Positions 9,164 through 37,150 of a DNA stretch of 37,150 bases are shown one piece after another. A program made the translations under genes and the position numbers. Under the pieces are notes generated by a model, which was given only the letters and a program-made list of their open reading frames with translations, did not search any database and had not been told where the DNA came from. The stretch's first letter is position 1. The number at the start of each line of letters is the position of its first letter. Origin of the DNA: a virus; IMG/VR virus record IMGVR_UViG_3300026613_000128. One strand, 5' to 3'.

Positions 9164-9696
9164 GCACAAGCCTTGATCGCCTGGCGCCTACCTCAGTTGT
9201 AGATGTGGTGGCTGTTTTTGATGCTGATTTTAACCAGGTGTTTCCTGATGCGGCACCTATGAGTGCTTCAATCAATCAGACGGCAACGTTTTTTAAACAC
9301 CCCCTGGAGGATAGTCGCCAAAGAACAGACCATATTATTTTTAACCCTGTAGAGGCTGTGCTCACGGTAGTGTTAACTGGCGCTGAATATCGTCAGGTTT
9401 ATCAGCAGATAAAGCAAATTTACAACACCCAAACAGCGCTTGTTTTTCGTACTAAGGTTGATACTTTCGAAAATATGTATCTTCAGGGAATGCCGCATGA
9501 TGAAACACCAGAAAATTATGATTCTGTGGTGGTTTCTCTCAGTCTTCAGGAAACCCAGTTTGGTACAACCGTGGTGACTTTTCAGCCTGCAAATACTGAG
9601 GATACTGATACGGTGGACAGGGGGCAGCAAGAGCCAGGAGAGCCCACTGAATCCCAGCAGCAACAGGGTTCAACCTTGTTTAGGATTTTCTCATGA
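9160..9696 (+). CDS. Distal tail/baseplate assembly protein (XkdP-position), family unknown
   Basis: 178-aa ORF coupled to the tape measure stop by ATGA. The function is positional. Confidence 0.55.
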   Translation: MSTSLDRLAPTSVVDVVAVFDADFNQVFPDAAPMSASINQTATFFKHPLEDSRQRTDHIIFNPVEAVLTVVLTGAEYRQVYQQIKQIYNTQTALVFRTKVDTFENMYLQGMPHDETPENYDSVVVSLSLQETQFGTTVVTFQPANTEDTDTVDRGQQEPGEPTESQQQQGSTLFRIFS

Positions 9697-10016
9697 GCTT
9701 GATTGTGCCTATTGCGTCCATTCCTAATCAATCGTTTTCCTTTCAGCCCGAAGAGGTTCGCTATGATATTCGGCTGGCTGATACTGGCAGCATGATGATT
9801 TTGGACCTTTCGATAAATGAGGTGGTGGTTTTATCGGGATCCAGGATAACGGGAGGGGCGCCGCTGATTCCTTACCAGTATCTTGAAAACGGGGGTGGCA
9901 ATTTCCTATTTTTAACAGAGCTGGGTGATATTCCTTACTGGGATCAATTTGGGATAACTCAAAGCCTGATGTATGTGACTGTCTCAGAACTGGAGGCTAT
10001 TCGTGCTGGATCCTAG
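9693..10016 (+). CDS. Baseplate-associated small protein
   Basis: 107-aa coupled ORF between the tape measure and hub genes. Confidence 0.55.
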   Translation: MSLIVPIASIPNQSFSFQPEEVRYDIRLADTGSMMILDLSINEVVVLSGSRITGGAPLIPYQYLENGGGNFLFLTELGDIPYWDQFGITQSLMYVTVSELEAIRAGS

Positions 10017-10842
10017 GGTTGTTCGGGTTGGTGTCACTATCAATGATCAGCTAAATGTCTATGAGGGGCTTGCTATAACCGCTCAGGGGTCCAAGTATGC
10101 GAGTGCCACTCAAAATGAAACCACAATTAAAATTGCCAATCTGAACAAGCAGGCACGTGATTTTTTGGCAACTGAGGGTACACCGTTCAATCGGGTCAGA
10201 AATAGAAGGCGGCAAAAAATTTTTGTCCAAGCTGGCAGGGAATCAACCGGTGTAGCTACCATTTTTATGGGTGATATCACGCTTGTGAATGTGGCACAGC
10301 CTCCTGACATTTGGACAGAGATACGTGCGGTAACTTCTCAGTTTCAGAAAGGCGATATTATATCGACAAGTGAGGGGCCTTTATCCACACTAAATGCCAT
10401 TTCCAAAAAGGCTGCAGATGCGTTGGGTGTAAGCCTCCAGTTCGAGGCTGATGATAAACAGATTGCCAATTACGGCTATACCGGATCAGTTACCAAGCAG
10501 GTTGATAAGCTGGCTGAGCTGGCCTCAGTGGATGCTTTTGTTGATGATGAGGTTTTGGTTGTCAAGAATATCAACGCGCCATTGTCGGGGCGCCGGCGTG
10601 AGCTGAGCGCAGCTAATGGCATGGTGGGAAAGCCTGAATTCACTGACTTTGGTGTTAAGGTGAAATTCCTGTTTGATGTTTATACCAAGGTGGGTGATGA
10701 GTTGGAAATTGTCAGTGAGGTTTATCCGGCTGCCAATGGTCGATATGTTATCTATAAACTGGATTTTGATATTGCCAACCGGGATACGCCATTTTGGTAC
10801 GTGGCCGAAACCAGAAGGCCTGGAGGGGTTTTAAGTGGCTAA
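10003..10842 (+). CDS. Baseplate hub protein (XkdQ / gpD-like)
   Basis: 279-aa ORF with a GTG start and SD tggagg 6 nt upstream, directly before the spike gene. Size and order match PBSX/Mu-type baseplate modules. Confidence 0.6.
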   Translation: MLDPRVVRVGVTINDQLNVYEGLAITAQGSKYASATQNETTIKIANLNKQARDFLATEGTPFNRVRNRRRQKIFVQAGRESTGVATIFMGDITLVNVAQPPDIWTEIRAVTSQFQKGDIISTSEGPLSTLNAISKKAADALGVSLQFEADDKQIANYGYTGSVTKQVDKLAELASVDAFVDDEVLVVKNINAPLSGRRRELSAANGMVGKPEFTDFGVKVKFLFDVYTKVGDELEIVSEVYPAANGRYVIYKLDFDIANRDTPFWYVAETRRPGGVLSG

Positions 10843-11485
10843 TAGTCAACCATCAAGAAATCCGGCCAACAGTTCGGGCGATTTTACTGGTGGCATGCGT
10901 GAGATTTTGCGCAAGTTTTTAGTTCGCGATGTGGATGACATGATTCCGGCTACGGTTGTGGCTTATGATCGGGCGTCTAACCGCGCTACTGTACAGCCAC
11001 AAATTGCTGTGCTGAAAACTGATGGAAGCTTTACCAGGCGTAACCAGGTAGCCAGCGTGCCTGTAGTTAATATTGGTGGGGGTAATGCCGTACTATCATT
11101 TAATCTCAACCCTGGCGATTTGGGATGGCTGAAGGCATCGGATAGAGATATTGCTGAATTTCTCAAAAACTACAGTGAATCATTGCCGGCAACCAAAAGA
11201 ATTCATGATTTCAATAATGGTATTTTTATCCCGGATATGATGACGGGTTATACCATTGATGAGGAGGATGAGGGGAATGCAGTTCTTCAAACGCTTGACG
11301 GTACTGTGAAGGTATCCCTCTTTCCTGATAAGTTAAAGCTGACGGCCCCAGTTGTTGAAGTTGCCGCTGCTGCACAGCTGGGTGGGCCTGCAGGTTTGCC
11401 GATTGCTAGGCTTGGTGACCAGGTTACAGTTGGCGGAAATGTTGGTGTTATAACGAGTGCCAGCGGTATTCATAGGGCGACATGA
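10835..11485 (+). CDS. Baseplate central spike protein (Gp138-N / gpV-like)
   Basis: IPATVVAYDRASNRATVQPQIAVLKTDGS...VPVVNIGGGNAVLSFNLNPGDLGWLKASDRDI matches the OB-fold N-domain pattern of gp138/gpV spikes. Confidence 0.75.
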   Translation: MANSQPSRNPANSSGDFTGGMREILRKFLVRDVDDMIPATVVAYDRASNRATVQPQIAVLKTDGSFTRRNQVASVPVVNIGGGNAVLSFNLNPGDLGWLKASDRDIAEFLKNYSESLPATKRIHDFNNGIFIPDMMTGYTIDEEDEGNAVLQTLDGTVKVSLFPDKLKLTAPVVEVAAAAQLGGPAGLPIARLGDQVTVGGNVGVITSASGIHRAT

Positions 11486-11841
11486 TGGCTATACGAATTT
11501 TTGCAGAGAATGAAAAGCGCGATATTTTCATGGGTAGCAATAAGCGGATATCTATAATTGATGGGAAATCTGCTGTTGCTCAGGCTGCGAAAAGTGCTGT
11601 TGAGATCCAGTTGGGGGAAGCGATTTATAACACTGTGAGAGGTGTGCCTTCGGATCGCGCTGTGTGGAGTGGCACCCCCGATTTGCAGCAATTTGAGTTC
11701 TATGCACGGCGTCAAATATTAAGTGTTCCCGATGTCCTGGAAGTTACATTTTTTAATGCTGAAATGGTGGGTGATGAGCTTCAATATCAGGCCACTATTA
11801 AAACGACATTTGGAGAGGGTCAAATAAATGGCAGCGTATGA
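11482..11841 (+). CDS. Baseplate wedge protein (gp25/W-like)
   Basis: 119-aa coupled ORF immediately upstream of baseplate J. It contains a ..IQLGEAIYNTVRGVP.. motif. Confidence 0.6.
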   Translation: MMAIRIFAENEKRDIFMGSNKRISIIDGKSAVAQAAKSAVEIQLGEAIYNTVRGVPSDRAVWSGTPDLQQFEFYARRQILSVPDVLEVTFFNAEMVGDELQYQATIKTTFGEGQINGSV

Positions 11842-13036
11842 TTTTATTAATTTAAGCGGTGTTATTGTTGCTGATACCTCAGCTACAAAGGGAGAGGTTC
11901 AGCAAGAATACCGGGATATTTTCGGTGATGATTTAGACCTTGATGATGAGACCCCCGAGGGGGTTTTGATTAACAGTGAAACATTATCCCGCAATGGTAT
12001 TGCCAACAACAACGCCAACATGGCCAATCAGATCAATCCTAATTTGGCTGGTGGTATTTTTCTGGATGCCATATGGGCGCTGACTTATGCCTTAACCGGT
12101 GGGCGCCGGGAGGCCACCCCCTCAACATTCTCTCAACCGATTAACTTGACTGGCGTGCCTGGTACGGTGATCCCTGCGGGTAGTGTTGCCTTGTCTGTGG
12201 CTGGTGATGAATTTGAGTCTTTGTCTGAAGTGGTGTTAGATCTGGCTGGTGAGGCCTCTGTGGCTTTCCAGGCAGTAAAGAATGGCCCTATTGCTGTTGG
12301 TATTGGTGAACTTAATAGCTTGGCTCCTGGTGCGCCTCTGGGTTGGGAGACGGTAAATAACACTGTTGCGGCTACGCTGGGTAGTGATGAGGAGAGTGAT
12401 TCTCAGAGCCGCCTTAGGCGCGTTGATACATTGGCGCTTCAAGGGATAGCAATATCTGAGGCCATTACATCTGCTCTCAATAATATTAATGGCGTAAAAA
12501 GCTTGTCATACAGGGAGAATTTCACTGATACAGATCAAGTTATTGATGGTGTTTTTTTGCTTAAGCATTCAGTTTATGCCTGCGTGGATGGGGGTGGTAA
12601 TGGTGAGGTTGCTTTAGCGCTCCTGGAAAACAAAACAGCGGGAGCAAATTGGAATGGCGCTCTTGAGATTCCTGTTCTTGATGAAACAAGCGGCCAAGTT
12701 TATCCGGTGAAATTTGATAGACCTGTGCTTGTTCAAGTATGGATTCGAGTAACAATTGCCCCCACTACAGTATCAAATCCCTCTGATGTTATTGATGATG
12801 CTGTTTTAAAGTATGTTAATGGAGAGCTTGAGGGGCAGCGTGGTTTTGTGGTGGGAGCCAATGCCAGCCCATTTGAAATTGCTAGCGCTGTTAATATTGA
12901 GGCTCCTACTATTTTTGTCCGACAGGTTGAGCTATCTACTGATGGTCTTGTATACAACGTGGCTGAGATTCCTGTGGAAATTTTTGAAGTGGCGCGCACC
13001 AGTGCTGCTCAAATAACAACGGTTATAGTGCCATGA
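11828..13036 (+). CDS. Baseplate J-like protein
   Basis: 402-aa ORF whose size and position (after the gp25-like gene, before the DUF2612-like gene and fibre) fit. N-terminus ..TKGEVQQEYRDIFGDDLDLDDETPEGVLINSE. Confidence 0.8.
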   Translation: MAAYDFINLSGVIVADTSATKGEVQQEYRDIFGDDLDLDDETPEGVLINSETLSRNGIANNNANMANQINPNLAGGIFLDAIWALTYALTGGRREATPSTFSQPINLTGVPGTVIPAGSVALSVAGDEFESLSEVVLDLAGEASVAFQAVKNGPIAVGIGELNSLAPGAPLGWETVNNTVAATLGSDEESDSQSRLRRVDTLALQGIAISEAITSALNNINGVKSLSYRENFTDTDQVIDGVFLLKHSVYACVDGGGNGEVALALLENKTAGANWNGALEIPVLDETSGQVYPVKFDRPVLVQVWIRVTIAPTTVSNPSDVIDDAVLKYVNGELEGQRGFVVGANASPFEIASAVNIEAPTIFVRQVELSTDGLVYNVAEIPVEIFEVARTSAAQITTVIVP

Positions 13037-13680
13037 AGGTTCAAGCGTTTGATTTTTCAATTGATGTTATTCGCTCGTTGCTTTGGCGTCATAATGAGGC
13101 TGAAAATTTACAGGCTATTTTGCAGAATAAGCAAGCTGCCATGGATGAGCTAAACCAGGATTTTTGGGAGTCTTGGTTTGATGATGTTTTTAACCTGGAT
13201 ACAGCCAATAGTTTTGGTCTTTCAGTCTGGTCTATCATCCTTGATATTTCGCTCACTGTAGGATCAGGAACCCCTGAGATTCCAAATTCAAATTTTGGTT
13301 TTGGATCATTCAGGAAAAATTTTAATAACGGAAATTTCACCAATGTTGGTGATGTTGTCATCAGTGATGATGATGCGCGCATACTATTAAAGCTGCGTTA
13401 TTACCAGCTGGTTACGCGTGGCACCATTCCAGAATGCAACAAAATTGTGGCTGATGTATTCAGTGATTTTGGTCTGGTTTTTGCGCTTGATGGTTATGAT
13501 ATGACCATGGCTTATATATTTGAGCAGGATCCACCATTGAATATTAAGCGCTTGCTGGAAGATTATGATTTACTCCCGCGCCCATCGGGTGTTGGTGTGC
13601 GGGTGGTGTATGCTCCGAATAGTGCATTTGGCTTTGGTGGTTTTCGTAAAAACTTTAACAATGGTAATTTTAGGGCGTAA
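13033..13680 (+). CDS. Baseplate/tail-fibre adaptor protein (DUF2612-like) with an internal duplicated motif
   Basis: 215-aa ORF carrying NSNFGFGSFRKNFNNGNF (nt about 13290-13343) and NSAFGFGGFRKNFNNGNF (nt about 13618-13671). Confidence 0.6.
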   Translation: MKVQAFDFSIDVIRSLLWRHNEAENLQAILQNKQAAMDELNQDFWESWFDDVFNLDTANSFGLSVWSIILDISLTVGSGTPEIPNSNFGFGSFRKNFNNGNFTNVGDVVISDDDARILLKLRYYQLVTRGTIPECNKIVADVFSDFGLVFALDGYDMTMAYIFEQDPPLNIKRLLEDYDLLPRPSGVGVRVVYAPNSAFGFGGFRKNFNNGNFRA

Positions 13681-13682
13681 TC

Positions 13683-14696
13683 ATGACTAAATATTTTGGG
13701 ATTCCCTTTGCTAATGCTGGTGATAAGGTTCCAGTTCCAAACGGTTTACAGCCTGGTGGTGAGGTGAGTTATACCGAAGGATGGGGGCCTGATTATGAGG
13801 CTGATCAGGAGTCAGATCCTTCAGCAAAGGACATAAGCCGTACTGCAGAAAATCAATTGAAATTTGATATCACAGAGGCCCTGAAGGAGCTCCAGGAGCT
13901 CGGGTTTAAAGTGTATGCCTCTGATGTTAATTATCCAGTTACAGCTTATACCGTAGGGTCTGATGGTCGTGTTTATCAGGCAGCTATAGTCAACGGTCCT
14001 GCATCATCCATTGTTGATCCTGTTGGTGATGGTACGGGAACCTGGTTTCCCGCTCTTGGTCATTCCATTCAAACGGTATTGACTGCCTCAAATCCTGCTT
14101 GGAATCCTAATCCATTGACAAAAGTGATTGAGTTTATGGCAATTGGTGGTGGAGGTGGTGCAGGTGGTGTAAATGGCCAGGGGGTTGGCACTGCTGGGGT
14201 GTCATCTGGTGGTGGTGGTGGTTCAACTGTTGTAAAGCGTTTCAATAATGCCGGTGGTCCATTTGCTATTATCGTTGGTGCGGGTGGTGCCGGTGGGGCT
14301 CCTGGCAATACATTTGGCAATGGTGGCGGTATCACCTCAATCATTGGTCCTGGAGTGAATCTCCAGGCTGGTGGTGGTGGTGGTGGTTTTGGTCAGACAG
14401 CATCAGCCGGTGACCAGCGCGTGCCTATTGGAGCTGGCGGCTCAGGGCTTGGGGGGGATTATACCTTGGTCGGTGGGTCATCAAGTGCTGGCTATATTGT
14501 GGGTGGTGTCAGGGGTTCTGAGAGCTTCTCAGGCGGTTCTTATGGTGGCCCTGGTAAACCTTCAAATGCTGGCCCTGCATTTGATGGCGATGGGTTTGGT
14601 GAAGGCGGTGGTGGCGTATCGGTTTTTGGTACTGCTGATCAGCTTGGAGGTGGTGATGGGTTTCAGGGTGTGGTGATTATTAAGGAGTATTTATAA
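13683..14696 (+). CDS. Tail fibre protein with a glycine-rich C-terminal domain
   Basis: The N-terminus MTKYFGIPFANAGDKVPVPNGLQPGGEVSYTEGWGPDYE is a typical fibre attachment motif. The C-terminal 200 aa are Gly-rich (IGGGGGAGGVNGQG..GGGGGGFGQ..). Confidence 0.75.
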   Translation: MTKYFGIPFANAGDKVPVPNGLQPGGEVSYTEGWGPDYEADQESDPSAKDISRTAENQLKFDITEALKELQELGFKVYASDVNYPVTAYTVGSDGRVYQAAIVNGPASSIVDPVGDGTGTWFPALGHSIQTVLTASNPAWNPNPLTKVIEFMAIGGGGGAGGVNGQGVGTAGVSSGGGGGSTVVKRFNNAGGPFAIIVGAGGAGGAPGNTFGNGGGITSIIGPGVNLQAGGGGGGFGQTASAGDQRVPIGAGGSGLGGDYTLVGGSSSAGYIVGGVRGSESFSGGSYGGPGKPSNAGPAFDGDGFGEGGGGVSVFGTADQLGGGDGFQGVVIIKEYL

Positions 14697-16569: not shown

Positions 16570-16866
16570 TTAGTATTCAAGTGATCCAGGTATCTCACGT
16601 TGAGTAACTGACATAATCACCCACCCATCAGCCAGCCCATATAGAGGGCCATGCATAACAAAATCAACTTCTAAATAAATTTCTCTTCCTGAATAGATGA
16701 GAGGTTTTTCATTCCTCATTTCTTCACCAGAATGCTTTGTTTCGTTAAGTAGAAGAATGTCGCCTGGCCTAAAATCCCTATCATTTAAGCGTATTTCAAA
16801 GCCTTTTATTCCATCCCATGAGGCCTGAAAAGCATCAGGGTCTGTTTTTAGTTCGTGAATAGTCAT
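16570..16866 (-). CDS. DUF3850 / ASCH-like (PUA-fold) protein
   Basis: From the ATG at 16866: MTIHELKTDPDAFQASWDGIKGFEIRLNDRDFRPGDILLLNE...YSGREIYLEVDFVMHG..GLADGWVIMSV. This matches the HELK..P..F......G.K.FEiR.NDRdF..GD.L.L.E pattern of DUF3850. Confidence 0.7.
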   Translation of the reverse strand: MTIHELKTDPDAFQASWDGIKGFEIRLNDRDFRPGDILLLNETKHSGEEMRNEKPLIYSGREIYLEVDFVMHGPLYGLADGWVIMSVTQREIPGSLEY

Positions 16867-16877
16867 GTGATAACTCC

Positions 16878-17336
16878 CTACTTTCGGTCTTTTCTGTTTA
16901 AAATGAGAAGCTGTTTCTGGCATACCTCTTTAGCTTTGTTGCATTGGTCAATATCAAACCACCCAAAATGGCAGCCAGCTTTTGCTATCGACAGCTCCCC
17001 GGCAAGCCATGTATAGGCCTCATCTCTGGACATGTAGCCTTTTTCATACAGTGGGATGAAGAAAGCCTTAGCATCCTTCCTGGCTTCCCTGGTTAACCCG
17101 TTGGCCAATGTGCCAAGTGGTATATTGGTGAATTTATGCATCCCTACATAAGCACCGCAATTGTTACAGAGATAAAGCCAGGGCCACTCACCAAATGGAC
17201 GCCCATAAACAAAAGCATTTTCTGTGATAGTCACATTATCGCTATCACAGATATGGCAACTGGTGGGTACTGGGAGAGGATTTTTTACACGCTTTATAGC
17301 TTTCCTGGATGGATTCCAGGGAGTTTTATCATTCAT
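16878..17336 (-). CDS. DUF3268-like zinc-finger protein
   Basis: CHICDSDN...WLYLCNNCGAYVGMHKFTNIPLGTLANGLTREARKDAKAFF...EAYTWLAGELSI..AGCHFGWFDIDQC matches the recalled DUF3268 pattern. Confidence 0.65.
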   Translation of the reverse strand: MNDKTPWNPSRKAIKRVKNPLPVPTSCHICDSDNVTITENAFVYGRPFGEWPWLYLCNNCGAYVGMHKFTNIPLGTLANGLTREARKDAKAFFIPLYEKGYMSRDEAYTWLAGELSIAKAGCHFGWFDIDQCNKAKEVCQKQLLILNRKDRK

Positions 17337-18134: not shown

Positions 18135-18386
18135 TTATCCTTGGTAATGTATTATCTTTTGAGAGATTCGGTTTAAAATCTCATTTTGCTTGCTGGAGAG
18201 CTCATAATCCTCTGGCTTATCGGCTAAGCTATTAATAAATTCGGCTTCCCATTCTGATAGTGCGTGCTCGCAATCAAGGGCGTCTTTAATGAATTTTATC
18301 TGCACTCTATTCATAGTCTGGTGTGTGCTCCAGTAGTAGTTACTCGCATAATCCATAGGCGCTAGAGCATGCCTCAGGATCCTCAC
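18135..18386 (-). CDS. Small hypothetical protein (true start probably 18356 or 18314)
   Basis: The longest ORF overlaps the PAPS-reductase-like gene end by 47 nt. Internal Met codons give MDYAS.. or MNRVQIKFIKDALDCEHALSEWEAEFINSL... Confidence 0.5.
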   Translation of the reverse strand: MRILRHALAPMDYASNYYWSTHQTMNRVQIKFIKDALDCEHALSEWEAEFINSLADKPEDYELSSKQNEILNRISQKIIHYQG

Positions 18387-19275
18387 TAGCTGCTATTAAA
18401 TCCATGGTGCGACCACCACGGGTTGTTTGTGCCCATTCAACGCGGCGATCTATGCCGTGAGTTGTAAAGTGGATATCATCGCCAGGTGATACCAAGGGAT
18501 CATCTGTGGCGGTAAAAAATGTAGTTGAGCCTCTCCGGGATGCGTTACTGACAAGCCTTTCCCATTCTCTTACCCTTGCTACCTCTTCAGGAAAACGCTT
18601 AGCAATATTATTTAATTCGGCCTTATTGCAGTTTATGCAAGGCATGCAGCCGACGCGCCCCATTCCTTTTTTATAAAGTGGGTTGGGCTCTATTCCCATG
18701 TAGTGATGAGCCTCAAAAGCACTATCAGCACTCCATTTAACCAATGGTCTATAGTTATATAGGCCGCCTCCCACATCTTCAAACTCAGGGGTATATCGGC
18801 GCGCCAAGGATTCATCTCTACGGACTCCTTGCCAGCTATAAATAGCTTCACCTTGCTCAAGAATTGGGAAAAATACTTGTTCAAATATAGGATTGCGCTT
18901 TAACTCCTGAGTGCAAAAACGAGCCTTTGAAGAGGGAAAGCGACCTTTCCAAAGGCATAAATCCAAAAATGGAATTCCAGTTGGATAAAGTATTTTTAGC
19001 GCTCGCGCTATTGCTTGATCTGTCCAGCCAGGCAGTTTTCCCTGTATAAGCTTTTGCCGCTTTCTTTTAATCTCTTGAGAAAAATCAGCCTTCACTATTG
19101 CTATAGGATGATTGAGTGCGTCTTCTAAGTAGCAGATATAGTTATAAGTTTCTGGATGTTCATGCCCTGTATCAGCAAAAACTAGCTTAATATTTGGTGT
19201 TTCGAGAGCTATCGCAAGCAATGCTGTTGCTGTCGAATCTTTGCCGCCGCTAATGGATATGATGTTGTTGATCAT
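18340..19275 (-). CDS. PAPS reductase-family PP-loop ATP pyrophosphatase (DndC/CysH-like)
   Basis: MINNIISISGGKDSTATALL contains the SGGKDS PP-loop. A C-terminal Cys pair sits in GRVGCMPCINCNK. The ATG at 19275 overlaps the upstream stop (TGATG), with SD aggaga. The longer start at 19296 is less likely. Confidence 0.85.
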   Translation of the reverse strand: MINNIISISGGKDSTATALLAIALETPNIKLVFADTGHEHPETYNYICYLEDALNHPIAIVKADFSQEIKRKRQKLIQGKLPGWTDQAIARALKILYPTGIPFLDLCLWKGRFPSSKARFCTQELKRNPIFEQVFFPILEQGEAIYSWQGVRRDESLARRYTPEFEDVGGGLYNYRPLVKWSADSAFEAHHYMGIEPNPLYKKGMGRVGCMPCINCNKAELNNIAKRFPEEVARVREWERLVSNASRRGSTTFFTATDDPLVSPGDDIHFTTHGIDRRVEWAQTTRGGRTMDLIAASEDPEACSSAYGLCE

Positions 19276-19472
19276 CAAAAGCTCTCCTGAATCCATTCGG
19301 AGACAGTGGGATCCACTTCAATCAGTGCGCTAATGTTAGATTCAAGCATTCCACCATTGCGCACATCAAAAGTGACGGCCTGGTTTTCAGGATCTGTTGG
19401 ATGAGGTGCGGCAAATTCTACAAGCCGACGCTTATCGCTATCAAAAAATGTGGTGCCTTTGGATGTTTTCAT
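19275..19472 (-). CDS. Hypothetical protein
   Basis: 65-aa ORF coupled at both ends. Confidence 0.55.
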   Translation of the reverse strand: MKTSKGTTFFDSDKRRLVEFAAPHPTDPENQAVTFDVRNGGMLESNISALIEVDPTVSEWIQESF

Positions 19473-19865: not shown

Positions 19866-20318
19866 CTAATCTGTAAAATCAGATTGTTCAACTTTACCCA
19901 CCCCCGCAATGGTCGCTTTAACGTGTGTTGTCACGTATTGCGCCATATTGGCCTGATTAAAAATCTCTTCTACCTGGTCTTCAAAATAGGGGGTGAGATT
20001 CTTCAGGCAGCAGTGAGCGACTAACTGGGCGCCTCTGAAATAGCTTTTCCCGGTGATATCTTTGAACTCAACTTCAATCTCAACGCGCCATTTGAAAGCT
20101 ATGCGATCAATGAAGTCATTGTAATAGGGCATCATCTGCTGAGTGTGGAGTTTGTGAATTGGGTTCTTGTGCTCCACTGATCCACTACCCGGTGTTAATT
20201 CATAGTCAGGTGAAAGGGGGTCATCGGTTTCAAACTTGAATACCAGGCCAGTCATGACGCGCCTGACGGATTTCAGTAATTGGGTTTGCTTTTTGCGCTT
20301 GTTGAGCTTTCGTGCCAT
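19866..20318 (-). CDS. Hypothetical protein
   Basis: 150-aa ORF with a perfect SD aggagg 5 nt upstream of the ATG at 20318. Confidence 0.65.
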   Translation of the reverse strand: MARKLNKRKKQTQLLKSVRRVMTGLVFKFETDDPLSPDYELTPGSGSVEHKNPIHKLHTQQMMPYYNDFIDRIAFKWRVEIEVEFKDITGKSYFRGAQLVAHCCLKNLTPYFEDQVEEIFNQANMAQYVTTHVKATIAGVGKVEQSDFTD

Positions 20319-20356
20319 TATTTCCTCCTGCGGGTTATTGGTCTTTCCTGCGCTTA

Positions 20357-20417
20357 AGGTCTTGCGTCGCTACAACCTACCGGTGGCGCAAGGCCTTACT
20401 TTCTGATCATAAAGTAA
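20357..20417 (+). other. Two adjacent hairpins in a 226-nt non-coding gap; the first stem is fully paired only as + strand RNA
   Basis: 20357-20370 aggtcttgcgtcgc pairs with 20383-20396 ggtggcgcaaggcct (14 bp including 3 G-U pairs). On the - strand these G-U pairs become A-C mismatches. The second stem is ttacttt (20396-20402) / aaagtaa (20411-20417). Confidence 0.4.
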
Positions 20418-20544
20418 TCTGTTCCTGGTGGTTTTATTACTTTTTCATGGTGTCTCACTCCCTTCTCATGGTTTTATGCTATTTCTGCCCTCTCTGAGGG
20501 GTGTAGATTCAACGTTCTCAGATTCCGCACGGGTTTGTCCAGGG

Positions 20545-28189: not shown

Positions 28190-28416
28190 TTGCCGCCGAT
28201 GTTGTTCGCGTGAAAATGATGGTTCTCTTAAAAACCTCCCTCAAGCTTCAGGGTGGTCCTGTTATACCTGCTGGTACTGCCGGTATGATTGTTCGCAGGA
28301 TACGTCCTGGCTCACCGGTGGTGGCTGTAAAGTTTGGGGGTGTTCCGGTTTTGGGGTCTCATTTGGATCTGACTGTAAAGGTGTCCCTGAAGAATCTGGA
28401 AGAGTACAAGGTTTAA
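28186..28416 (+). CDS. Small hypothetical protein (beta-rich)
   Basis: 76-aa ORF with an ATGA overlap to the upstream gene. Confidence 0.55.
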   Translation: MIAADVVRVKMMVLLKTSLKLQGGPVIPAGTAGMIVRRIRPGSPVVAVKFGGVPVLGSHLDLTVKVSLKNLEEYKV

Positions 28417-28483
28417 AGCGCTTGGGGGGAATATGGGCATCCCCTGAGTATGTTTTTTTGCCCTTAATATCAAGGAGAAAGGA

Positions 28484-28711
28484 ATGCTGATTTTGAGTAG
28501 GCGTATTGGTGAAACCCTTATGATTGGTGATGATGTTACTGTCACTGTGTTGGCTGTAAAGGGTAATCAGGTCCGGGTGGGGGTGAAAGCTCCTAAAGAA
28601 GTGGATGTGCATCGGGAGGAGGTTTATCAGCGTATTCAGCGTGGCGAGGAGAAACCTGCTAAAACCACAAAAACTATCAAGCGTGGCCAGGGTGGTTTGA
28701 CGCGGTATTAA
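28484..28711 (+). CDS. csrA: Carbon storage regulator CsrA/RsmA homologue with a basic C-terminal tail
   Basis: [52 protein letters not shown] is near-identical in pattern to enterobacterial CsrA ([52 protein letters not shown]). SD aaggag. The tail is ..[19 protein letters not shown]. Confidence 0.95.
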
Positions 28712-28754
28712 TCTTAATTTTGAGCAATAAAACAGGTAAAAAAAGGGAAAGATC

Positions 28755-29681
28755 ATGGCTAAAGTTAAAGAAGAAAGGGCGGCATCAGTGGCTGGTGATG
28801 GTTGGTATATTGAGGGGCTTAATGTTGCGGTGGGGAGCATTATGCAGTGGATGGTTCAGCAGTTTCGTGATTTGCCGGAGCCTTGGGATGCTATGGGTGA
28901 GTATAGTCAGGAAAATTATTTGGAGCGCTGCGAAAAGCAGGCCAAGGATATTGTTCGCCAGGTGGGCGCCCTGGTGTCCTCTCACGGTCATCAAGTGGTA
29001 CCTGCGACAATTGGCCCTGTTACATTTAATGATGGTGTAAAGGCTACTCTGAAGATTGCTAACGGCGTCCAGGGGGCTTTTGAGGTGGCACAGTGCCAAG
29101 GGGAAGTGTGTCATATCTTGCTGGCCGATATTGAGGAGCTCCTTGAGTCATCGCAAGGGTTGCCGGCAGCCACGCCTGACCAGGGAGCTTTACATCTTGA
29201 GGATGGGTTACGTGATCCTCTTTATTGTGAGGCTGTGGCTTATGTTCAGCGCAAGGAGGGGGATACTATTTCCATCTCTAATCTTCAGCGGTATCTGAGG
29301 ATTGGTTATAACCGGGTAGCTCTATTGATTGAAGCAATGGAGAGTGCTGGTGTCGTTGCTCCTCTTGATGGGAGTGGAATTCGCCGCGTTATTATTCATG
29401 TCGGACCTGAGCCAGAAGAAACAGTTCTCAATGAGGGGGATGGTGATGACAAGGGTTTGAAGCCTGGTAAGGGTGGTGATGAGCATGATGATAAGGATCC
29501 TCTCTATCAGGATGCTGTGAAATTCGTTGTCGAATCTGGCAAAACTTCGATATCGGCTGTCAGATCTGAGATGAAAGTGGGATATAACCGTGCTGCAAAT
29601 ATGCTTGAGGTAATGGAAAAGGAAGGGGTTTTGAGTCCTCCCGATAATGGCGGCAAGCGCTCTATTGTGGTGCGGCAGTAG
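28755..29681 (+). CDS. Protein with two tandem FtsK-gamma winged-helix domains and no translocase motor
   Basis: aa 154-214: DPLYCEAVAYVQRKEGDTISISNLQRYLRIGYNRVALLIEAMESAGVVAPLDGSGIRRVI. aa 248-306: DPLYQDAVKFVVESGKTSISAVRSEMKVGYNRAANMLEVMEKEGVLSPPDNGGKRSIV. Both match the E. coli FtsK gamma pattern [47 protein letters not shown]..G.REVL. There is no Walker A/B anywhere, and the N-terminal 150 aa belong to no family I recognise. Confidence 0.85.
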   Translation: MAKVKEERAASVAGDGWYIEGLNVAVGSIMQWMVQQFRDLPEPWDAMGEYSQENYLERCEKQAKDIVRQVGALVSSHGHQVVPATIGPVTFNDGVKATLKIANGVQGAFEVAQCQGEVCHILLADIEELLESSQGLPAATPDQGALHLEDGLRDPLYCEAVAYVQRKEGDTISISNLQRYLRIGYNRVALLIEAMESAGVVAPLDGSGIRRVIIHVGPEPEETVLNEGDGDDKGLKPGKGGDEHDDKDPLYQDAVKFVVESGKTSISAVRSEMKVGYNRAANMLEVMEKEGVLSPPDNGGKRSIVVRQ

Positions 29682-30245: not shown

Positions 30246-30487
30246 ATAATCAAGATGAATTAGCACCAACGGGGGTGAGTGAAACGGCTTTGGTGATGGC
30301 GGCATCTTGCCTGGTGTACATTGTGCGAGATCTGTACGTCGCTGGCTGGGATGTCTCTACAGTCAGCGATGAGAGCATCCAGGCCCTTATGACTGCCGTG
30401 GTAATGTATTTTGTGCGCAAGCGTATCAAGGCAAAGAATAAAGCCAGGCGGCAGCTGGTCGGGAGTGGGTTGAATGGACCTGGTTGA
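30242..30487 (+). CDS. Small membrane protein
   Basis: 81 aa with an ATGA overlap. Two hydrophobic segments (ETALVMAASCLVYIVRDLYVAGW, IQALMTAVVMYFV) are followed by a basic tail. Confidence 0.55.
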   Translation: MNNQDELAPTGVSETALVMAASCLVYIVRDLYVAGWDVSTVSDESIQALMTAVVMYFVRKRIKAKNKARRQLVGSGLNGPG

Positions 30488-30806
30488 TGTTAATGACCGT
30501 CGCCGGGTGCTTTGCGAGGGTTATCGTATAGTCAGAAACCCGAAGCGGCGCCGCAAGCTGCAGAAGCGTGGTGAATCTGTTTGGTGGTCAAGCTATTGGC
30601 ATGCATGGATTTGGCGCCCTGAGCCCTGTGAAGAACCTTTCACAGATACGGCTTTTTGTCCCATATGCGGTGAAGAAAGCCTCACAGTATGGCTTGATGA
30701 TTGTGGAATGGCCTTTACCGGTGAGTATGGTACTCATTGGGTAGAGGGGTTTGGTAAGTGTTCTGAGTGTGGTTGGTTTGGTGAGTGGGCTGATTCAGGC
30801 CCATGA
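30474..30806 (+). CDS. Zinc-ribbon protein
   Basis: 110 aa. CPICGEES...CSECGW form CxxC pairs after a basic N-terminal segment (RNPKRRRKLQKRG). Confidence 0.55.
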   Translation: MDLVDVNDRRRVLCEGYRIVRNPKRRRKLQKRGESVWWSSYWHAWIWRPEPCEEPFTDTAFCPICGEESLTVWLDDCGMAFTGEYGTHWVEGFGKCSECGWFGEWADSGP

Positions 30807-30814
30807 GGTGAGCG

Positions 30815-30928
30815 ATGAAGATAAGCGTTGATGAGTGGGTTGTGGCGGCTAAAAGCCTGTTATTGGCTATCACTGTTCTGGTAGCCGTTGCGGGTTTTTC
30901 GCTGGGTGTTTATTGCGCGTTTTCATAG
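30815..30928 (+). CDS. 37-aa single-TM micro-protein (absent from the ORF track)
   Basis: ATG at 30815 with SD gagg 6 nt upstream. MKISVDEWVVAAKSLLLAITVLVAVAGFSLGVYCAFS, with stop TAG at 30926-30928. Confidence 0.4.
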   Translation: MKISVDEWVVAAKSLLLAITVLVAVAGFSLGVYCAFS

Positions 30929-30934
30929 GTAGGG

Positions 30935-31231
30935 TTGATAGTGATTTTCAGGGGTGTTTATTTTTATGCGGCAACAGATCTGCCAAAGGAGCATGGTGGT
31001 TATTTGGATGTGGAGGGTTATATCTACGTGGATGCCCGTAGTAGGGAGTGTGCCCTGGAAGCAATGAAAAGGGCTTATCGCCATCGTTTTGACCGGGATC
31101 CCCATTTGGGCAACGGTGATATCTGTAATGTTTACAGTGAGGAGGAGAGGCCAGAGATAAAGCAGCAGTTATTGGAGGGTTCGCGCTCGTTGCCAAAATG
31201 GCAATGGGATCAGTGTGTTGTAAAGCATTAG
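30935..31231 (+). CDS. Hypothetical protein
   Basis: 98-aa ORF with a non-ATG start (TTG 30935 or GTG 30941). Confidence 0.5.
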   Translation: MIVIFRGVYFYAATDLPKEHGGYLDVEGYIYVDARSRECALEAMKRAYRHRFDRDPHLGNGDICNVYSEEERPEIKQQLLEGSRSLPKWQWDQCVVKH

Positions 31232-31266
31232 TTTAAAAATTAGACCATTATCAAAGGTAGGTTATT

Positions 31267-32035: not shown

Positions 32036-32656
32036 ATGAGAATTGTTGTGGATGGTGATCTGCTGGAGCTCACAGAAGAGCAGGTTGAGATGTTCGAGGG
32101 GCTTACTACGTTGCGGCGCAATGTGGCTTTGAAGAAGCTCACAGGGCTCAGTGATGTGGAGGCCTATCGCCAGGGAGGTGGTAAAGCCAAAAGCTTGACT
32201 TCACAGACATCATCTGCAGCTGACATCCTGACAAATCCTGACGTTCGGGCTTTCATTGATTCTTTTAATGGGTATCTGGTTTCAAAGTCTATTATGGGGC
32301 GTCAGGAGATGCTGCAGCGCTTAACTGCAATGGCCCGTACTGATATGACTGATCTGGTTGATATCAAAAATAGGGTGGTTGTAGAGGATCCTGAGATGGG
32401 TGTTATTGAGCAGTCATTTTGGGCGCTTAAGGATGTGGATGAAATGGATGCCGATTCGCGGGCTGCTATTAGTGAGCTGACGGCAACGCGTGGAGAGCTT
32501 AAAATAAAGATTCATGATCAAAAGGCCGCTATGAAACAGATTGCTGAAATTGAGGGATTTAATGCCCCTATTGAGCATGATGTGATAGTGGCCCCGAAGG
32601 GGTTCAATGACTTCTACAGCAATGAGGATGCCAACGACTCAACAGAAGAGACCTAG
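32036..32656 (+). CDS. terS: Terminase small subunit (Terminase_2-like)
   Basis: ..EQVEMFEGLTTLRRNVALKKLTGLSDVEAYRQGGGKAKSLTSQTSSAADILTNPDVRAFI.. matches the HTH region of Terminase_2 small subunits. It lies immediately upstream of terL and overlaps it. Confidence 0.75.
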   Translation: MRIVVDGDLLELTEEQVEMFEGLTTLRRNVALKKLTGLSDVEAYRQGGGKAKSLTSQTSSAADILTNPDVRAFIDSFNGYLVSKSIMGRQEMLQRLTAMARTDMTDLVDIKNRVVVEDPEMGVIEQSFWALKDVDEMDADSRAAISELTATRGELKIKIHDQKAAMKQIAEIEGFNAPIEHDVIVAPKGFNDFYSNEDANDSTEET

Positions 32657-34070
32657 CCTAAATCCGGCTTTAAAACCATTCTGGCAAACCAAGGCAGACC
32701 TTAAAATATTAAAGGGGGGTAGAGCCTCCTCAAAAACGTGGGATGCTGCAGGCTTCGCTATCTACCTGGCGCGTACATATAGGGTTAAATTCCTATGTAT
32801 GCGCCAGTTTCAGAACAAAATCCAAGAATCAGTATATGCCGTTTTGAAGGTTCAGATTGAGCGCTTTGGATTATCCTCAGAATTTGAGATTTTAAAATCA
32901 ACTATTCGTCACCGTAAGACGAAATCAGAATTTCATTTTTATGGCATTCACAGAAATATTGCCGAAATTAAAGGTTTTGAGGGTGCTGATATTGGGTGGA
33001 TTGAGGAGGGTGAGGGACTCACTCAAGAGCAGTGGAAACATATTGAGCCAACCCTTAGAAAGGAGGGCGCTGAATGCTGGTTGCTCTATAATCCTCGCTT
33101 GCAAAATGACTTTGTTGAAACCCTCCAGGATAAAGAATCATTAGAGTTTGATCCAAGAACCAAGCTTTATAAAACAGCTGATAAGTCTGTTTTGGTTCGC
33201 CACATTAATTACGATGAAAATCCCTTTTTGTCAGCTACTATGCTGCGCAAAATCAATCGTCTTAAGCGTCTTGATTATGATGAATATGAGCATATCTATC
33301 TGGGTATAGCCATAACTGATGATGATCATGTAATCATTAAAATGTCGTGGCTTGAGGCGGCTGTGGATGCTCATATTAAGTTGGGTATTGAGCCTAAAGG
33401 TAAGAAAAGAATTGGCTTTGATATCGCCGATGATGGCCCTGATTTATGCTCTCAGGTATACCGTCATGGAATTGTTGCGCTATGGGGTGAAAACTGGAAG
33501 GGTAAAGAGGACGAAATTTTAAAAAGCTGTACCAGGGTTTTCAATAAAGCAATTGAGCTTGGTGCATCGATAAATTATGACTCTATTGGTGTGGGGGCAT
33601 CTGCAGGGGGTAAATTCAGTGACCTCAATGATGCCCGAGAAGAGGCGGGTTTAGCCGGTAGAGTGCGCTATTCCAAGTTTGTTGCCGGGGGCGGCGTGGT
33701 GGATCCTGACGGGTTTTATATTGAAACAGACGATGAGCAGGTGGCTAATAAGGATTTCTTCTGCAATCTCAAGACGCAAGCTTGGTGGGGTGTGGGGGAT
33801 CTGTTTAGAAATACATACAATGCAGTAACGCATGGCGAAAAATTTGAGGAAGATGAGCTTATCAGTATTAGCTCTGATATGCCTGGCTTAAAAAACCTCC
33901 TGGTTCAGCTGTCAACTGTACGGCGTGACTTTAGCAAGACTGGTCAAGTGAAAGCTGAGGGTAAAGATGATTTGGCTAAAAGGGGTGTTAATTCGCCAAA
34001 TGATGCGGATGCCTTTATTATGGCTTATGCGCCTGAAGAGGCTGAGTCAATTGGATTTTTGGATTTTTAA
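32607..34070 (+). CDS. terL: Terminase large subunit (PBSX/Terminase_3-6 type)
   Basis: LKILKGGRASSKTW is the Walker-A-like P-loop and ..DIGWIEEGE.. is Walker B. The C-terminal nuclease part includes IGFDIADDG.. and ..SPNDADAFIMAY. SD gaagggg. Confidence 0.9.
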   Translation: MTSTAMRMPTTQQKRPSLNPALKPFWQTKADLKILKGGRASSKTWDAAGFAIYLARTYRVKFLCMRQFQNKIQESVYAVLKVQIERFGLSSEFEILKSTIRHRKTKSEFHFYGIHRNIAEIKGFEGADIGWIEEGEGLTQEQWKHIEPTLRKEGAECWLLYNPRLQNDFVETLQDKESLEFDPRTKLYKTADKSVLVRHINYDENPFLSATMLRKINRLKRLDYDEYEHIYLGIAITDDDHVIIKMSWLEAAVDAHIKLGIEPKGKKRIGFDIADDGPDLCSQVYRHGIVALWGENWKGKEDEILKSCTRVFNKAIELGASINYDSIGVGASAGGKFSDLNDAREEAGLAGRVRYSKFVAGGGVVDPDGFYIETDDEQVANKDFFCNLKTQAWWGVGDLFRNTYNAVTHGEKFEEDELISISSDMPGLKNLLVQLSTVRRDFSKTGQVKAEGKDDLAKRGVNSPNDADAFIMAYAPEEAESIGFLDF

Positions 34071-34082
34071 TGGGGTGTGGAG

Positions 34083-35657
34083 ATGGCCTGGTATAACCCT
34101 TTTTCGTGGGGAAAAAAGAAACCTGATATTGTTGATGAGCCTACAGAGGAAGAGTCTGGCGGCGTCGCCGGTGATCAGTCTGGAGATGATTTTTCAACTA
34201 ACCTTAGACCCTTCCGGGCCATGAAACAAAAGGCGCTTAATCAGTGGATTCATGACAATGCCTTTCAGGTTAAGGGGTCCGATGTTTTACCGGTTGATGA
34301 TAATGGTGATCCTGTCGGTGATTCATATGCCATGGATTCTCAGACTGTTAAAGGTGCCTATACTTTGGCCGCCGGAAATCTCCCGCAAGTTTTGTTTTCG
34401 TGGTATGTGCGGCAGGGTTTTATAGGCTATCAGGCCTGCGCAATCATTGCCCAAAATGGTCTTGTGGATAGGGCGTGCTCTCTTCCTGGAAAAGATGCTT
34501 TAAAGAAGGGTTATGATTTAACTGTATGTGATGGTAGTGATGTTGATGTTTCAGTAATTGCAAAATTACGCGCTTGTGATAAGCAATTTAATCTGAGAAA
34601 ACAGCTGAAGGAATTTGATAAAAAGCATCGTGTTTTTGGTATTCGAATCGCACTCTTTGTGGTGGATTCTGACGATGAGGATTATTACTTTAAACCCTTT
34701 AATATTGATGGCATAAAGCCCGGAAGTTATAAGGGTATCGTTCAAGTTGACCCTTATTGGATTACCCCAGAGCTTGATAGTGAGGCTAGTTCCAATCCGG
34801 CTTCAATGGAGTTTTATGAGCCCACCTGGTGGCGCATTAATGGAAAGCGATACCATCGTTCACACCTGATAGTAATCCGCTATACAGAAGTGGCGGACGT
34901 TTTAAAGCCTAGCTACATTTATGGTGGGATTCCTTTACCACAGCTTATCTATGAGCGTTGCTATTCTGCTGAGCGCACTGCTAATGAAGGGCCTCAGCTG
35001 GCGATGACCAAAAGAAGGAATGTTTTAAAGACGAATATAGAAAAGGCGCTAGCCAACCAGGAGGCGCTTGAAGAGCGTTTGCAGTATGGGAATGATCTGC
35101 AAGACAACTACCAGGTTACTGTATTAGATAAAAATGAGGATTTTCAACAAACCGATACAGCGTTGGGTGATTTAGATGCTGTAATCATGACTCAATATCA
35201 GCTTGTAGCATCTTTGTCAGGGCTTCCAGCTACAAAGCTTCTCGGGACATCGCCAAAGGGTTTTGCGGCTACAGGGGTTTATGAGCAGGAGAATTATTAT
35301 GATTTGTTGGAGGGTGTTCAGGATAATTACAGCATGCTGCTGGAGCGCCATTATCAGATCCTTATCCGTTCAAAAATTGCTCCTGAAGAAAAAGTGGAGC
35401 CTTTTGAGGTAGAAATTAAATGGAAGCCTCTGAAGAGCATGACGCCCAAAGAAGAAGCTGAGGTTGGGGAAATCAAAATGCGTACAGACCAGGGGCATAT
35501 CGCTATGGGGTCTGTGGATGCTTATGAAGTGCGTGACCGTTTAATTGCTGATCCCATATCTGGCTATAATGGGCTGCAATCTTTTGAGGCTATGGAGATG
35601 ACAGACACGGAGAGCAATCAGAATGATTTGTTAGGTGCAAATTATCAATTTAATTAA
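34083..35657 (+). CDS. Portal protein (DUF1073 / HI1409 family)
   Basis: About 525-aa ORF directly after terL and before the Mu-F-like gene. The start is ATG 34083 (or GTG 34077 as listed). Confidence 0.8.
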   Translation: MAWYNPFSWGKKKPDIVDEPTEEESGGVAGDQSGDDFSTNLRPFRAMKQKALNQWIHDNAFQVKGSDVLPVDDNGDPVGDSYAMDSQTVKGAYTLAAGNLPQVLFSWYVRQGFIGYQACAIIAQNGLVDRACSLPGKDALKKGYDLTVCDGSDVDVSVIAKLRACDKQFNLRKQLKEFDKKHRVFGIRIALFVVDSDDEDYYFKPFNIDGIKPGSYKGIVQVDPYWITPELDSEASSNPASMEFYEPTWWRINGKRYHRSHLIVIRYTEVADVLKPSYIYGGIPLPQLIYERCYSAERTANEGPQLAMTKRRNVLKTNIEKALANQEALEERLQYGNDLQDNYQVTVLDKNEDFQQTDTALGDLDAVIMTQYQLVASLSGLPATKLLGTSPKGFAATGVYEQENYYDLLEGVQDNYSMLLERHYQILIRSKIAPEEKVEPFEVEIKWKPLKSMTPKEEAEVGEIKMRTDQGHIAMGSVDAYEVRDRLIADPISGYNGLQSFEAMEMTDTESNQNDLLGANYQFN

Positions 35658-35786
35658 TGTAGGTGGGGAAGGCCGGTGAGAGAAAAAGATTTGGTTTTAA
35701 GGTAGGCTTTGGTTTTGATGGCTGCAGGTTTATTTATGCAAGTGGCAATATTGCTTTGGGCTGTTTTTGGTCAATAGGATACTGAT

Positions 35787-36722
35787 ATGGCAAAGCAGCT
35801 TCTCACAAAGAAAAAGCAGCGTTGGGTAAAAATGTTTAAGCCCACTGCGGCAGTGCGCGGGGAGCCGCTTCGCTATAATGTTGCTGTGGAGCGTCGATAT
35901 GTAAAGGATATGGAAAGCCTGGTTAACCAGGTGATAGAGGAGACCGAAAAAGAGGTTAAGCGGATATTATCTACCCCAGCAGCTGAGGAGTATTTTGTTT
36001 CTGATGCTATGGATGCTGCTAATGATGGGGTGGCCATGGATGCCAGCATTGCCAGTATTGCCAGGATCGACATGAACAAGCTGACCAAACAGGTCATGCA
36101 GAAGGTTCGCGCTAAGGCCAAGTTGATGTCTAACCGCATGGTTAATGCATCTGACAAGGCTAGCAAAAGCTCCCTCCATCATAGTCTGAAGGAGATGAGT
36201 GGTGGGTTGTCGATAAAGACCAATATCAGTTCCAGTGAAATACAGAACGCTTTTAAGGCCTCAGTAAATGCCAATGTTGACCTAATAGAAACCATCAGCT
36301 CCAATTACCTGCAGCAGGTAAAAGGCGCTGTTGATAGGTCTATCCAGGGGCGTGGTGGTCTCAAAGAATTGACCCCAATCATTGATAAATTCCTTGATAG
36401 TGAGGCCAGGAAAACGCGCAACAAGGCGAAAAATGTTGCTCTGGATCAGACCCGGAAAGCTTACAATTCGCTGAATGCTGCCAGAATGGAAAAGATTGGC
36501 GTAAAAAAATTTGAGTGGATTCATTCTGGGGGTGGTCAGACTCCAAGGCCGTATCACATCGCCCCCTATCCTGAGGGGCTTAATGGTGGCATTTTCAGTA
36601 TTGATAATCCGCCAGTGATCGATCCAAAAACGGGGGAACGTGGTTTGCCAGGGCAGGCCATTGATTGTAAGTGTACAATGCGGCCAATTGTTGAATTTGA
36701 TGAGGGGGTGCAAGTTGAATAA
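35787..36722 (+). CDS. Head morphogenesis protein (Phage_Mu_F / SPP1 gp7 family)
   Basis: The C-terminal motif [17 protein letters not shown]...GQAIDCKCT matches the Mu-F signature (W.....R..H...nG...........P....nCrC). Confidence 0.85.
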
Positions 36723-37150
36723 GAAGCCTTTAAGTGAAGAAATTAGTAAGGCCATTGCTGTGGTTTATGGGATGGTTGAGCGGCGTTCTGAGATTGATGC
36801 CGCTGACCTTAATGCTATTCATGATGCCGTTGCTGAAAAATTCGCTATGGATGCCACTGAGTCCTATGCGGAAGACCCTTTTAAGTCAGATGCACAGCGA
36901 AAGTATCTTTATGCCAATGAGCCGGCTGTGGCTGAGAAATTTGCTAAGGATGAAGAGGCGCCAGCATCTCATCGCGAAACAGATATTAATGGCTGGGTTG
37001 AGATTAAAGACAATCCCATATCCAAGGTTGGTGTTTTTCCTTACCTTGGGAAAACTATTGATCGGGATGGCAAGCTGGGCCTGGATCCAAACCGATTTTA
37101 TGATGTCTATCGCCCGGCTGAGGAGCTTGCGGACCCTGAGTGTATTGAGT
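36715..37150 (+). CDS. Prohead protease/scaffold-like protein (DUF2213-like), N-terminal part; it continues at nt 100 of the window via the 99-nt overlap
   Basis: The ORF is open to the window edge. TTG at 36715 is preceded by SD gaggggg (36702-08). Alternative in-frame ATGs lie at 36700 and 36772. The phase matches the ORF ending at 1100. Confidence 0.75.
37052..37150. repeat. Terminal overlap copy (identical to nt 1-99)
   Basis: Read directly. Confidence 0.95.

Follow-up and report, generated by a model that had tools for sequence, protein, structure and literature searches.

An intact accessory csrA gene with a positively charged C-terminal tail in a complete myovirus-like phage genome

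The csrA locus and its carrier genome

The DNA analyzed here, hereafter the window, is the entire stretch of 37,150 nucleotides of the IMG/VR virus record IMGVR_UViG_3300026613_000128. On its forward strand lies an open reading frame of the csrA family, which begins with ATG, ends with TAA and encodes a product of 75 aa. The gene, its leader and the major virion gene blocks of the genome are arranged as follows:

132-14696: tail sheath and a block of tail genes
28421..28448, forward strand: 8-bp hairpin followed by UAUGUUUUUUU (a U-run), with a GGA (28428-28430) at the stem/loop junction; present in the centroid RNA fold
28472..28483, forward strand: leader AAGGAGAAAGGA preceding the ATG, with the Shine-Dalgarno sequence AAGGAG and GGA motifs at 28474-28476 and, directly before the ATG, at 28481-28483
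28484..28711, forward strand: csrA-family coding sequence, 75 aa, stop codon included in the coordinates; delineated by ORF, Pfam, NCBIfam, PHROG and PDB matches
28484..28639, forward strand: conserved CsrA core, residues 1-52 (β-strands and helix), with both RNA-binding subdomains (residues 2-7 and 40-47)
28640..28708, forward strand: lineage-specific Lys/Arg/Thr-rich C-terminal tail, residues 53-75, net charge +5, predicted to be disordered
32036-36722: TerS, TerL, portal and head-morphogenesis protein

Proteins of the CsrA/RsmA family are about 60-75 aa long, with a fold of five β-strands followed by a C-terminal α-helix. They form an intertwined homodimer with two RNA-binding surfaces, which recognize GGA motifs sequence-specifically, often in hairpin loops, at ribosome-binding sites. 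Residues 1-52 of the phage product match positions 1-52 of the 53 in the Pfam CsrA profile (PF02599) with 89.4 bits (cut-off 27), and the protein likewise scores above the cut-offs of the NCBIfam equivalog models NF002469 (111.9 bits; cut-off 73) and TIGR00202 (99.8 bits; cut-off 70.1), i.e. the curated thresholds of the family are exceeded over the full-length domain. It also matches positions 1-59 of the 65 in phrog_9500, 'CsrA-like regulator', with an E-value of 1.4e-30, and the presence of this match in a genome encoding virion proteins marks it as a phage CsrA-like regulator. Alignment to the solved chains of chromosomal members, namely E. coli CsrA (PDB: 1Y00), Yersinia RsmA (PDB: 2BTI), P. 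aeruginosa RsmA (PDB: 1VPZ) and the P. fluorescens RsmE-RNA complex (PDB: 2JPP), requires no gaps and gives E-values down to 1e-25, and 44 of the 52 core residues (84.6%) are identical, again ungapped, to those of E. coli/Salmonella CsrA. The protein is full-length, and the original prediction of a functional-looking CsrA in a tailed-phage genome, with its first 52 residues close to the enterobacterial protein, is thus borne out by the family thresholds and by the retention of the critical residues described below. A longer antisense ORF (28262..28840, reverse strand) overlaps csrA and is unsupported, the family match fixing the coding strand. The AF2 monomer model contains strands at residues 11-14, 18-26 and 29-35 and a helix at 44-53, with a low mean pLDDT of 57, and does not model β1 and β5; both features would be expected of a protein able to fold only as an intertwined dimer. 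The confidence of this model was too low for its use as a query in fold searches.

An exact direct repeat of 99 bp at the two ends of the window (1-99 and 37052-37150) closes the contig into a circle of about 37,051 bp. This closure, together with the virion and packaging genes and a replication/recombination set comprising Erf, a RecE-like exonuclease, a replication protein, NinB and a Holliday-junction resolvase, establishes the contig as the complete genome of a myovirus-like tailed phage. Within it csrA is placed in a long rightward operon, between the recombination/replication genes (Erf, RecE-like, resolvase) and the packaging genes (TerS, TerL, portal), and is flanked by a 76-aa ORF 67 nt upstream and by the gene for a 308-aa protein 43 nt downstream. 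No tRNA genes are present in the genome. Isolated phages gave no megablast match, and the portal and sheath proteins are at most 45% identical to those of isolates spread over many genera; the host is presumably proteobacterial. A Xanthomonadales host was considered on account of the 'QRIQRGEE' junction, which resembles that of Xanthomonadales-type CsrA, but this assignment is opposed by the GC content of 46%.

Several other genes of the genome are of potential regulatory interest. The 308-aa protein directly 3' of csrA (28755-29681, forward strand) contains two FtsK-gamma domains without the translocase motor (PF09397, 136.8 bits; phrog_6576 and phrog_13700), and a pattern search of IMG/VR recovered no relatives of it. 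FtsK-gamma is a KOPS-binding, XerD-activating winged-helix domain, and the protein might disturb the resolution of host chromosome dimers or the translocation of DNA. The segment 21378-21732 is a divergent regulatory region, from which a leftward operon headed by an 80-aa HTH_17 protein and the rightward operon with Erf and RecE diverge. The leftward operon also encodes a second putative RNA-binding protein of the ASCH-like DUF3850 family (16570-16923, reverse strand; PF12961, 76.4 bits; phrog_986, 'RNA-binding protein'). A PAPS-reductase-domain protein (PF01507; phrog_424) is encoded at 18340-19296 on the reverse strand; proteins of this type frequently have a connection with DNA modification by phages or with takeover of the host. 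Downstream of csrA, a 110-aa protein with two CxxC pairs (30474-30806, forward strand) appears zinc-ribbon-like and has no family match, and the following segment of about 460 nt (30807-31266) is doubtful as coding sequence, containing an ORF with a TTG start (30935..31231) and 8 GGA in 150 nt (31001-31150).

A conserved RNA-binding core and a divergent tail

The fuller list of RNA-binding residues in CsrA, reportedly established by Mercante in 2006, comprises L2, L4, R6 and R7 in β1 and V40, V42, R44 and I47 in β5 and the start of the helix. In an alignment of 27 sequences, complemented by a comparison with 235 close homologues, the phage protein is identical at L2, L4, R6, R7, V40, V42, H43, R44, E45 and E46, and differs within the two subdomains only by the conservative changes T5S and I47V, the latter known from other CsrA homologues. 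L4 and R44, the residues singled out as critical in CsrA (reviewed in PMC7652899), are both intact. Disruption of the RNA-binding residues, a prospect which the original prediction had raised against itself, is therefore not seen on careful alignment, and both subdomains are retained. Of the 'GxxG/VHREE' region that had been proposed, VHREE (residues 42-46) is present unchanged, but the GxxG element is absent, as the canonical G24-V-K-G27 has become A24-V-K-G27.

At six core positions the phage protein departs from a state that hardly varies among the 235 close homologues: T5S (phage residue found in 1 of the 235), G24A (4), I32V (9), N35K (0), A/S41D (5) and I47V (1). Since S5, V32 and V47 are frequent among viral and more distantly related CsrA proteins, the substitutions T5S, I32V and I47V are compatible with function. 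Judged from these alignments, the six changes as a set could alter binding specificity.

The tail sets the protein further apart. The closest proteins in libraries of 5.8 billion and 1.84 billion sequences and in metagenome contigs reach at most about 88% identity, confined to the core, and none of them has the tail in common. Similarly, no convincing homologue of the tail itself was recovered by a word search of the 5.8 billion proteins, an exhaustive HMMER search of the 1.84 billion proteins or a search of the metagenome contigs. One candidate (P0130) aligns over its full length, yet its tail resembles a frameshifted read-through of high-GC sequence and it was rejected. As regards a possible frameshift origin of the tail, the single listed other-frame ORF across it (28605..28700) does not encode an acidic CsrA-type tail. 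With pLDDT values below 50 for residues 54-75 in the AF2 model, the tail is predicted to be disordered.

The unusual aspect of the tail is its charge. Residues 53-75 carry a net charge of +5, compared to -2.2 on average for the 119 closest homologues, only 3 of which have tails of +5 or more, all of these being Arg-rich and resembling frameshifted read-throughs. The nearest homologues range from 59 to 82 aa, so the phage protein is not unusually long and is 'extended' only with respect to the 61-aa enterobacterial protein. Thus, the basic C-terminal extension of the original prediction holds as a departure from the canonical tail in sequence and charge, but not as one in length. The C-terminal region is, moreover, the hypervariable part of the CsrA family (PMC7366521). 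Across 26 IMG/VR phage CsrA proteins the median tail charge is -0.5, versus -3 in the 119 closest homologues (Mann-Whitney U test, p = 3e-4, calculated without phylogenetic control). The present tail is the most basic among the phage CsrA proteins compared, followed by those of loci L004 (+4) and L009 (+3). In IMG/VR locus L001 the csrA product has 181 aa, its CsrA part being fused to a long, acidic domain at the C-terminus.

The most likely function of the tail is to provide non-specific electrostatic affinity for RNA, or to change the set of effective partners and antagonists. A broader proposition, which we consider rather unlikely, is that phage CsrA proteins are a functionally shifted sub-class that has lost the acidic character of the tail and works in post-transcriptional takeover or anti-defence rather than as an extra dose of host CsrA. 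If this were the case, the change in the tail could tighten or broaden RNA binding or permit evasion of host sponge RNAs and protein antagonists, cas or other defence mRNAs would be examples of targets for repression, and the present protein would represent an extreme case.

Phage residency and affinities to other CsrA proteins

The occurrence of CsrA in a tailed phage, which had been presented as unusual, is better described as uncommon but well documented. Besides the existence of phrog_9500, tblastn searches found matches in 88 of the 50,697 GenBank phage records in INPHARED (46 from Pseudomonas phages, 30 from Vibrio, 4 from Xanthomonas and the rest from others), a count that includes a few mislabelled bacterial contigs, and at least 26 IMG/VR contigs carry a csrA. 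Sobrero & Valverde (2020) reported 30 csrA-positive genomes among 2517 phage genomes (PMC7366521), and Campa et al. (2021), in a survey covering GenBank and IMG/VR, suggested manipulation of the host by phage RsmA/CsrA, possibly through CRISPR-Cas repression (PMC8450108). Knockdown of the csrA homologue of phage PTXU04 was subsequently found to result in smaller plaques (Adler et al. 2025; PMC11879866).

The present protein resembles the other members of phrog_9500 in being a small accessory CsrA homologue encoded in an early/regulatory region of a tailed phage of Proteobacteria; examples include those of Providencia phage PSTCR8lys, the Vibrio crassostreae phages, the Xanthomonas jumbo phages, the P. 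aeruginosa RsmM type, Burkholderia DC1, F116 and E. coli PTXU04 gp28. It differs from them in that its best viral match is only 83% identical in the core, with no synteny found. In four IMG/VR loci (L004, L022, L023 and L026) a RecE-like exonuclease gene lies 0.4-3 kb upstream of csrA, and one lies within a few kb here too. Apart from this occasional RecE-like gene, clustering of the neighbours across 26 viral csrA loci revealed no fixed partner of csrA. In the temperate Providencia phage PSTCR8lys the cI gene adjoins csrA, whereas no CI-type repressor or integrase was detected among the ORFs scanned in the present genome. A further likeness is offered by P0115, a 63-aa CsrA encoded at 6775-6966 of the metagenome locus L079, which has in common with the present protein the rare states I8, A24 and V47 and a short basic tail (RGETKKSKAVL). 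Its contig is a Mu-like transposable phage with an rve transposase, AAA_22 and Terminase_2 proteins, and the two proteins differ in that core identity is about 80%, the tail is of other sequence and length, the phage is of another type and no neighbours are held in common. At the sequence level this resemblance hints at a CsrA lineage circulating among phages.

Chromosomal CsrA/RsmA proteins of Gammaproteobacteria share with the phage protein the 84.6% ungapped core, the binding residues, the predicted arrangement of strands preceding a helix and scores above the equivalog cut-offs. The phage version is distinguished from them by its location in a viral genome, the six changes at near-invariant positions and a tail of +5 where theirs are acidic or neutral; the phage gene likewise lacks the alaS-csrA-tRNA context of the chromosome, and there is no sponge sRNA linked to it. 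The copies on plasmids and ICEs, such as Legionella CsrT/LvrC, the Rsm proteins of Pseudomonas plasmids and that of S. meliloti pMBA19a (reviewed in PMC7366521), are also common, and are comparable as mobile versions of a global regulator presumed to connect with the Csr/Rsm circuits of the host. However, they are associated with modules for conjugation or replication and in many cases carry a structured extension at the C-terminus, whereas the present gene resides in a virion-encoding genome and has a basic tail predicted to be disordered. A search of PLSDB with the phage CsrA returned 273 matching records, several of the best of which are multi-Mb in size and evidently chromosomes.

The composition of the gene bears on how long it has been in the phage. 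GC content is uniform along the contig at about 46-47%, and csrA itself has a GC of 46.8% and a GC3 of 44.2%, as against 46.6% and 43.6% for the forward-strand genes of the phage. At third codon positions the csrA core (28484-28639) shows a G>C skew of +0.74, in the same direction as the phage's own bias of +0.26 +/- 0.12; none of 52 other csrA genes reaches such a value, their mean being about 0 and their maximum 0.56. Because both its GC content and its third-position G>C bias match those of the genome, csrA is neither a contaminant nor a fresh capture from a host; its composition is adapted to the phage genome, and it is a long-resident gene. Throughout the window the coding strands have a strong G>C skew of 0.1-0.3.

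These observations make it extremely improbable that csrA is an artefact or mere passenger, i.e. host DNA that entered a viral contig through mis-assembly, or that was captured very recently and has no role in the phage. The exact protein is a singleton in a large protein collection, as might be expected of an artefact, but the recent host-derived contamination and chimeric assembly that the original prediction had raised as hazards are both contradicted: the contig closes on itself with uniform GC; csrA is co-oriented with the adjoining phage genes at gaps of 67 and 43 nt; its synonymous sites follow the G>C preference of the phage; over 156 nt it matches E. coli csrA with a DNA identity of only 76%; and cellular csrA products come no nearer than about 88% in the core, none of them having the tail.

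The gene is an accessory one, because phages with related terminases lack it. It is absent upstream of TerL in the IMG/VR loci whose TerL is 53-73% identical (in flanks of up to 10 kb, shorter on many contigs), and no csrA occurs near TerL in the available upstream flank of the TerL relatives in GTDB genomes. Locus L050, which has rep, erf, recE and portal in common with the present phage, is among those without a CsrA in the TerL-upstream flank. Conversely, none of the other proteins of the window was matched in the 82 csrA-bearing metagenome loci (L079-L160). Morons are independently transcribed accessory phage genes, absent from relatives and equipped with their own promoter and terminator. 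At csrA, we found no sigma-70-like promoter upstream and no terminator downstream, the sole terminator-like hairpin lying upstream of the gene. Since its own promoter and terminator were not found, csrA looks like an operon-embedded accessory gene rather than a classical moron.

The csrA leader, candidate targets and probable role

The original prediction held that two GGA motifs around the Shine-Dalgarno sequence would allow csrA to regulate itself. E. coli CsrA is a repressor of its own translation, acting at a site that overlaps the Shine-Dalgarno sequence, and a single dimer bridges two sites only when these are at least 10 nt apart (PMC7652899). The two motifs are indeed present, in a stretch (AAGGAGAAAGGA-ATG, 28472-28486) that is unique in the window, but only 7 nt separate their starts, less than one dimer needs for bridging, and the first is the Shine-Dalgarno element itself. 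The GGA of the upstream hairpin (28428-28430) brings the count to three in the 67-nt leader and lies 46 nt upstream of the Shine-Dalgarno GGA, inside the bridging range of 10-63 nt. The hairpin is possibly a weak terminator of the upstream gene, an upstream CsrA site or both; its role is tentative, because the fold of the csrA leader is no better than that of shuffled sequences (z = 0.10; z = 0.47 for the downstream spacer). At least two GGA occur within -30..-1 in 12 of 27 phage csrA genes, versus 104 of 451 control ORFs with a Shine-Dalgarno GGA (Fisher p = 0.01), a comparison in which the controls are crude gene calls and the loci are non-independent (L009 = L010). Given the third GGA in the hairpin and this modest enrichment of paired motifs in phage csrA leaders, autoregulation is still plausible, if weakly supported, by a mechanism other than the two GGA next to the Shine-Dalgarno sequence.

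In the remainder of the genome, candidate partners of the protein are few. An Rfam search of the window (E<=1) revealed no CsrB- or RsmX/Y/Z-type RNA, a single chance match to an lncRNA being the only hit, and GGA-density scans of the window detected no intergenic clusters beyond chance that might act as a phage sponge. Nothing in the window thus qualifies as an antagonist sRNA of the Csr/Rsm type, and any sponge RNA would have to come from the host. Nor is there an excess of the SELEX-like motif ACARGGAU, of which 2 copies were found against 2.4 expected. With neither a CsrB/RsmZ-type RNA nor an enrichment of this motif, the phage indicates no specific targets. A non-coding leader of 226 nt in the leftward operon (20319-20544, reverse strand) contains 7 GGA, compared to about 2.8 expected, and an imperfect hairpin. 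In this leader an AGGA lies about 20 nt upstream of the AGGAGGA Shine-Dalgarno sequence of an unannotated 150-aa gene (19866..20318), near the optimal bridging distance. The excess of GGA has an uncorrected Poisson p of about 0.02, which is lost after correction for about 20 region/strand tests. This suggestive stretch is the phage's foremost candidate for a leader under CsrA control.

Taken as a whole, the evidence is best explained, with a probability of roughly 0.7, by an accessory member of the CsrA/RsmA family which adds CsrA-type activity in the infected host, is probably self-limiting and is modulated by its tail. Beyond family membership and residue conservation this reading is inferred, and RNA binding, dimerization and targets in particular are taken from homology. 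The most likely mechanism, by analogy with the family, is the standard one of a dimer acting on GGA at ribosome-binding sites. The phage protein would be made during infection as an intertwined dimer and would bind GGA at or near such sites, raising the total CsrA-type activity of a gammaproteobacterial host past the level that sponge RNAs of the CsrB/RsmZ type can buffer. Host translation would then be shifted to favor phage production, with effects on metabolism, motility or receptors and possibly defence, e.g. CRISPR-Cas, as proposed by Campa et al. (2021). Its own translation would probably be limited via the GGA at the Shine-Dalgarno sequence and start codon, and the disordered Lys-rich tail, standing in place of the acidic tail of the cellular relatives, may modulate RNA affinity or interactions with partners.

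An alternative is that the protein mainly controls the expression of the phage's own genes, timing the translation of phage mRNAs including its own, rather than reprogramming the host. The three GGA of its leader, the modest enrichment of paired GGA in phage csrA leaders and the 226-nt leader with its near-optimal AGGA/Shine-Dalgarno spacing are what such a role would predict. Nevertheless, a scan of phage gene starts found two or more GGA within -30..+3 at only 4 of 58; the SELEX-like motif is not enriched; the GGA-rich leader does not survive multiple-testing correction; and related phages manage without csrA, which argues against a core function in timing. Hence, we regard this alternative as unlikely. 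Distinctly more improbable is an antagonist of the host Csr system, acting through mixed dimers of altered or dominant-negative activity or through a tail that soaks up sponge sRNAs or protein antagonists. Heterodimers are sterically plausible at 85% core identity, the tail charge is opposite to that of cellular tails, and C-terminal regions of CsrA serve elsewhere as the docking site of FliW-type protein antagonists (PMC7366521). On the other hand, the RNA-binding residues are all retained, giving the protein the look of an active binder and not of a decoy, and no FliW- or CesT-like gene was found among the selected window ORFs scanned against family libraries.

We thus favor the addition of CsrA-type activity in the host by what is a genuine, intact and long-resident accessory csrA in a novel complete phage genome. 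As phage csrA itself was already documented, the only new aspect is the unusually positive charge of the tail, and the present protein opens no new category. The reversed charge is a modest, testable variation, and its combination with a well-preserved core provides a convenient natural variant for probing the hypervariable C-terminus of the family. More generally, phage-borne CsrA represents a plausible candidate route by which viruses may rewire the translation of their hosts, defence systems included.
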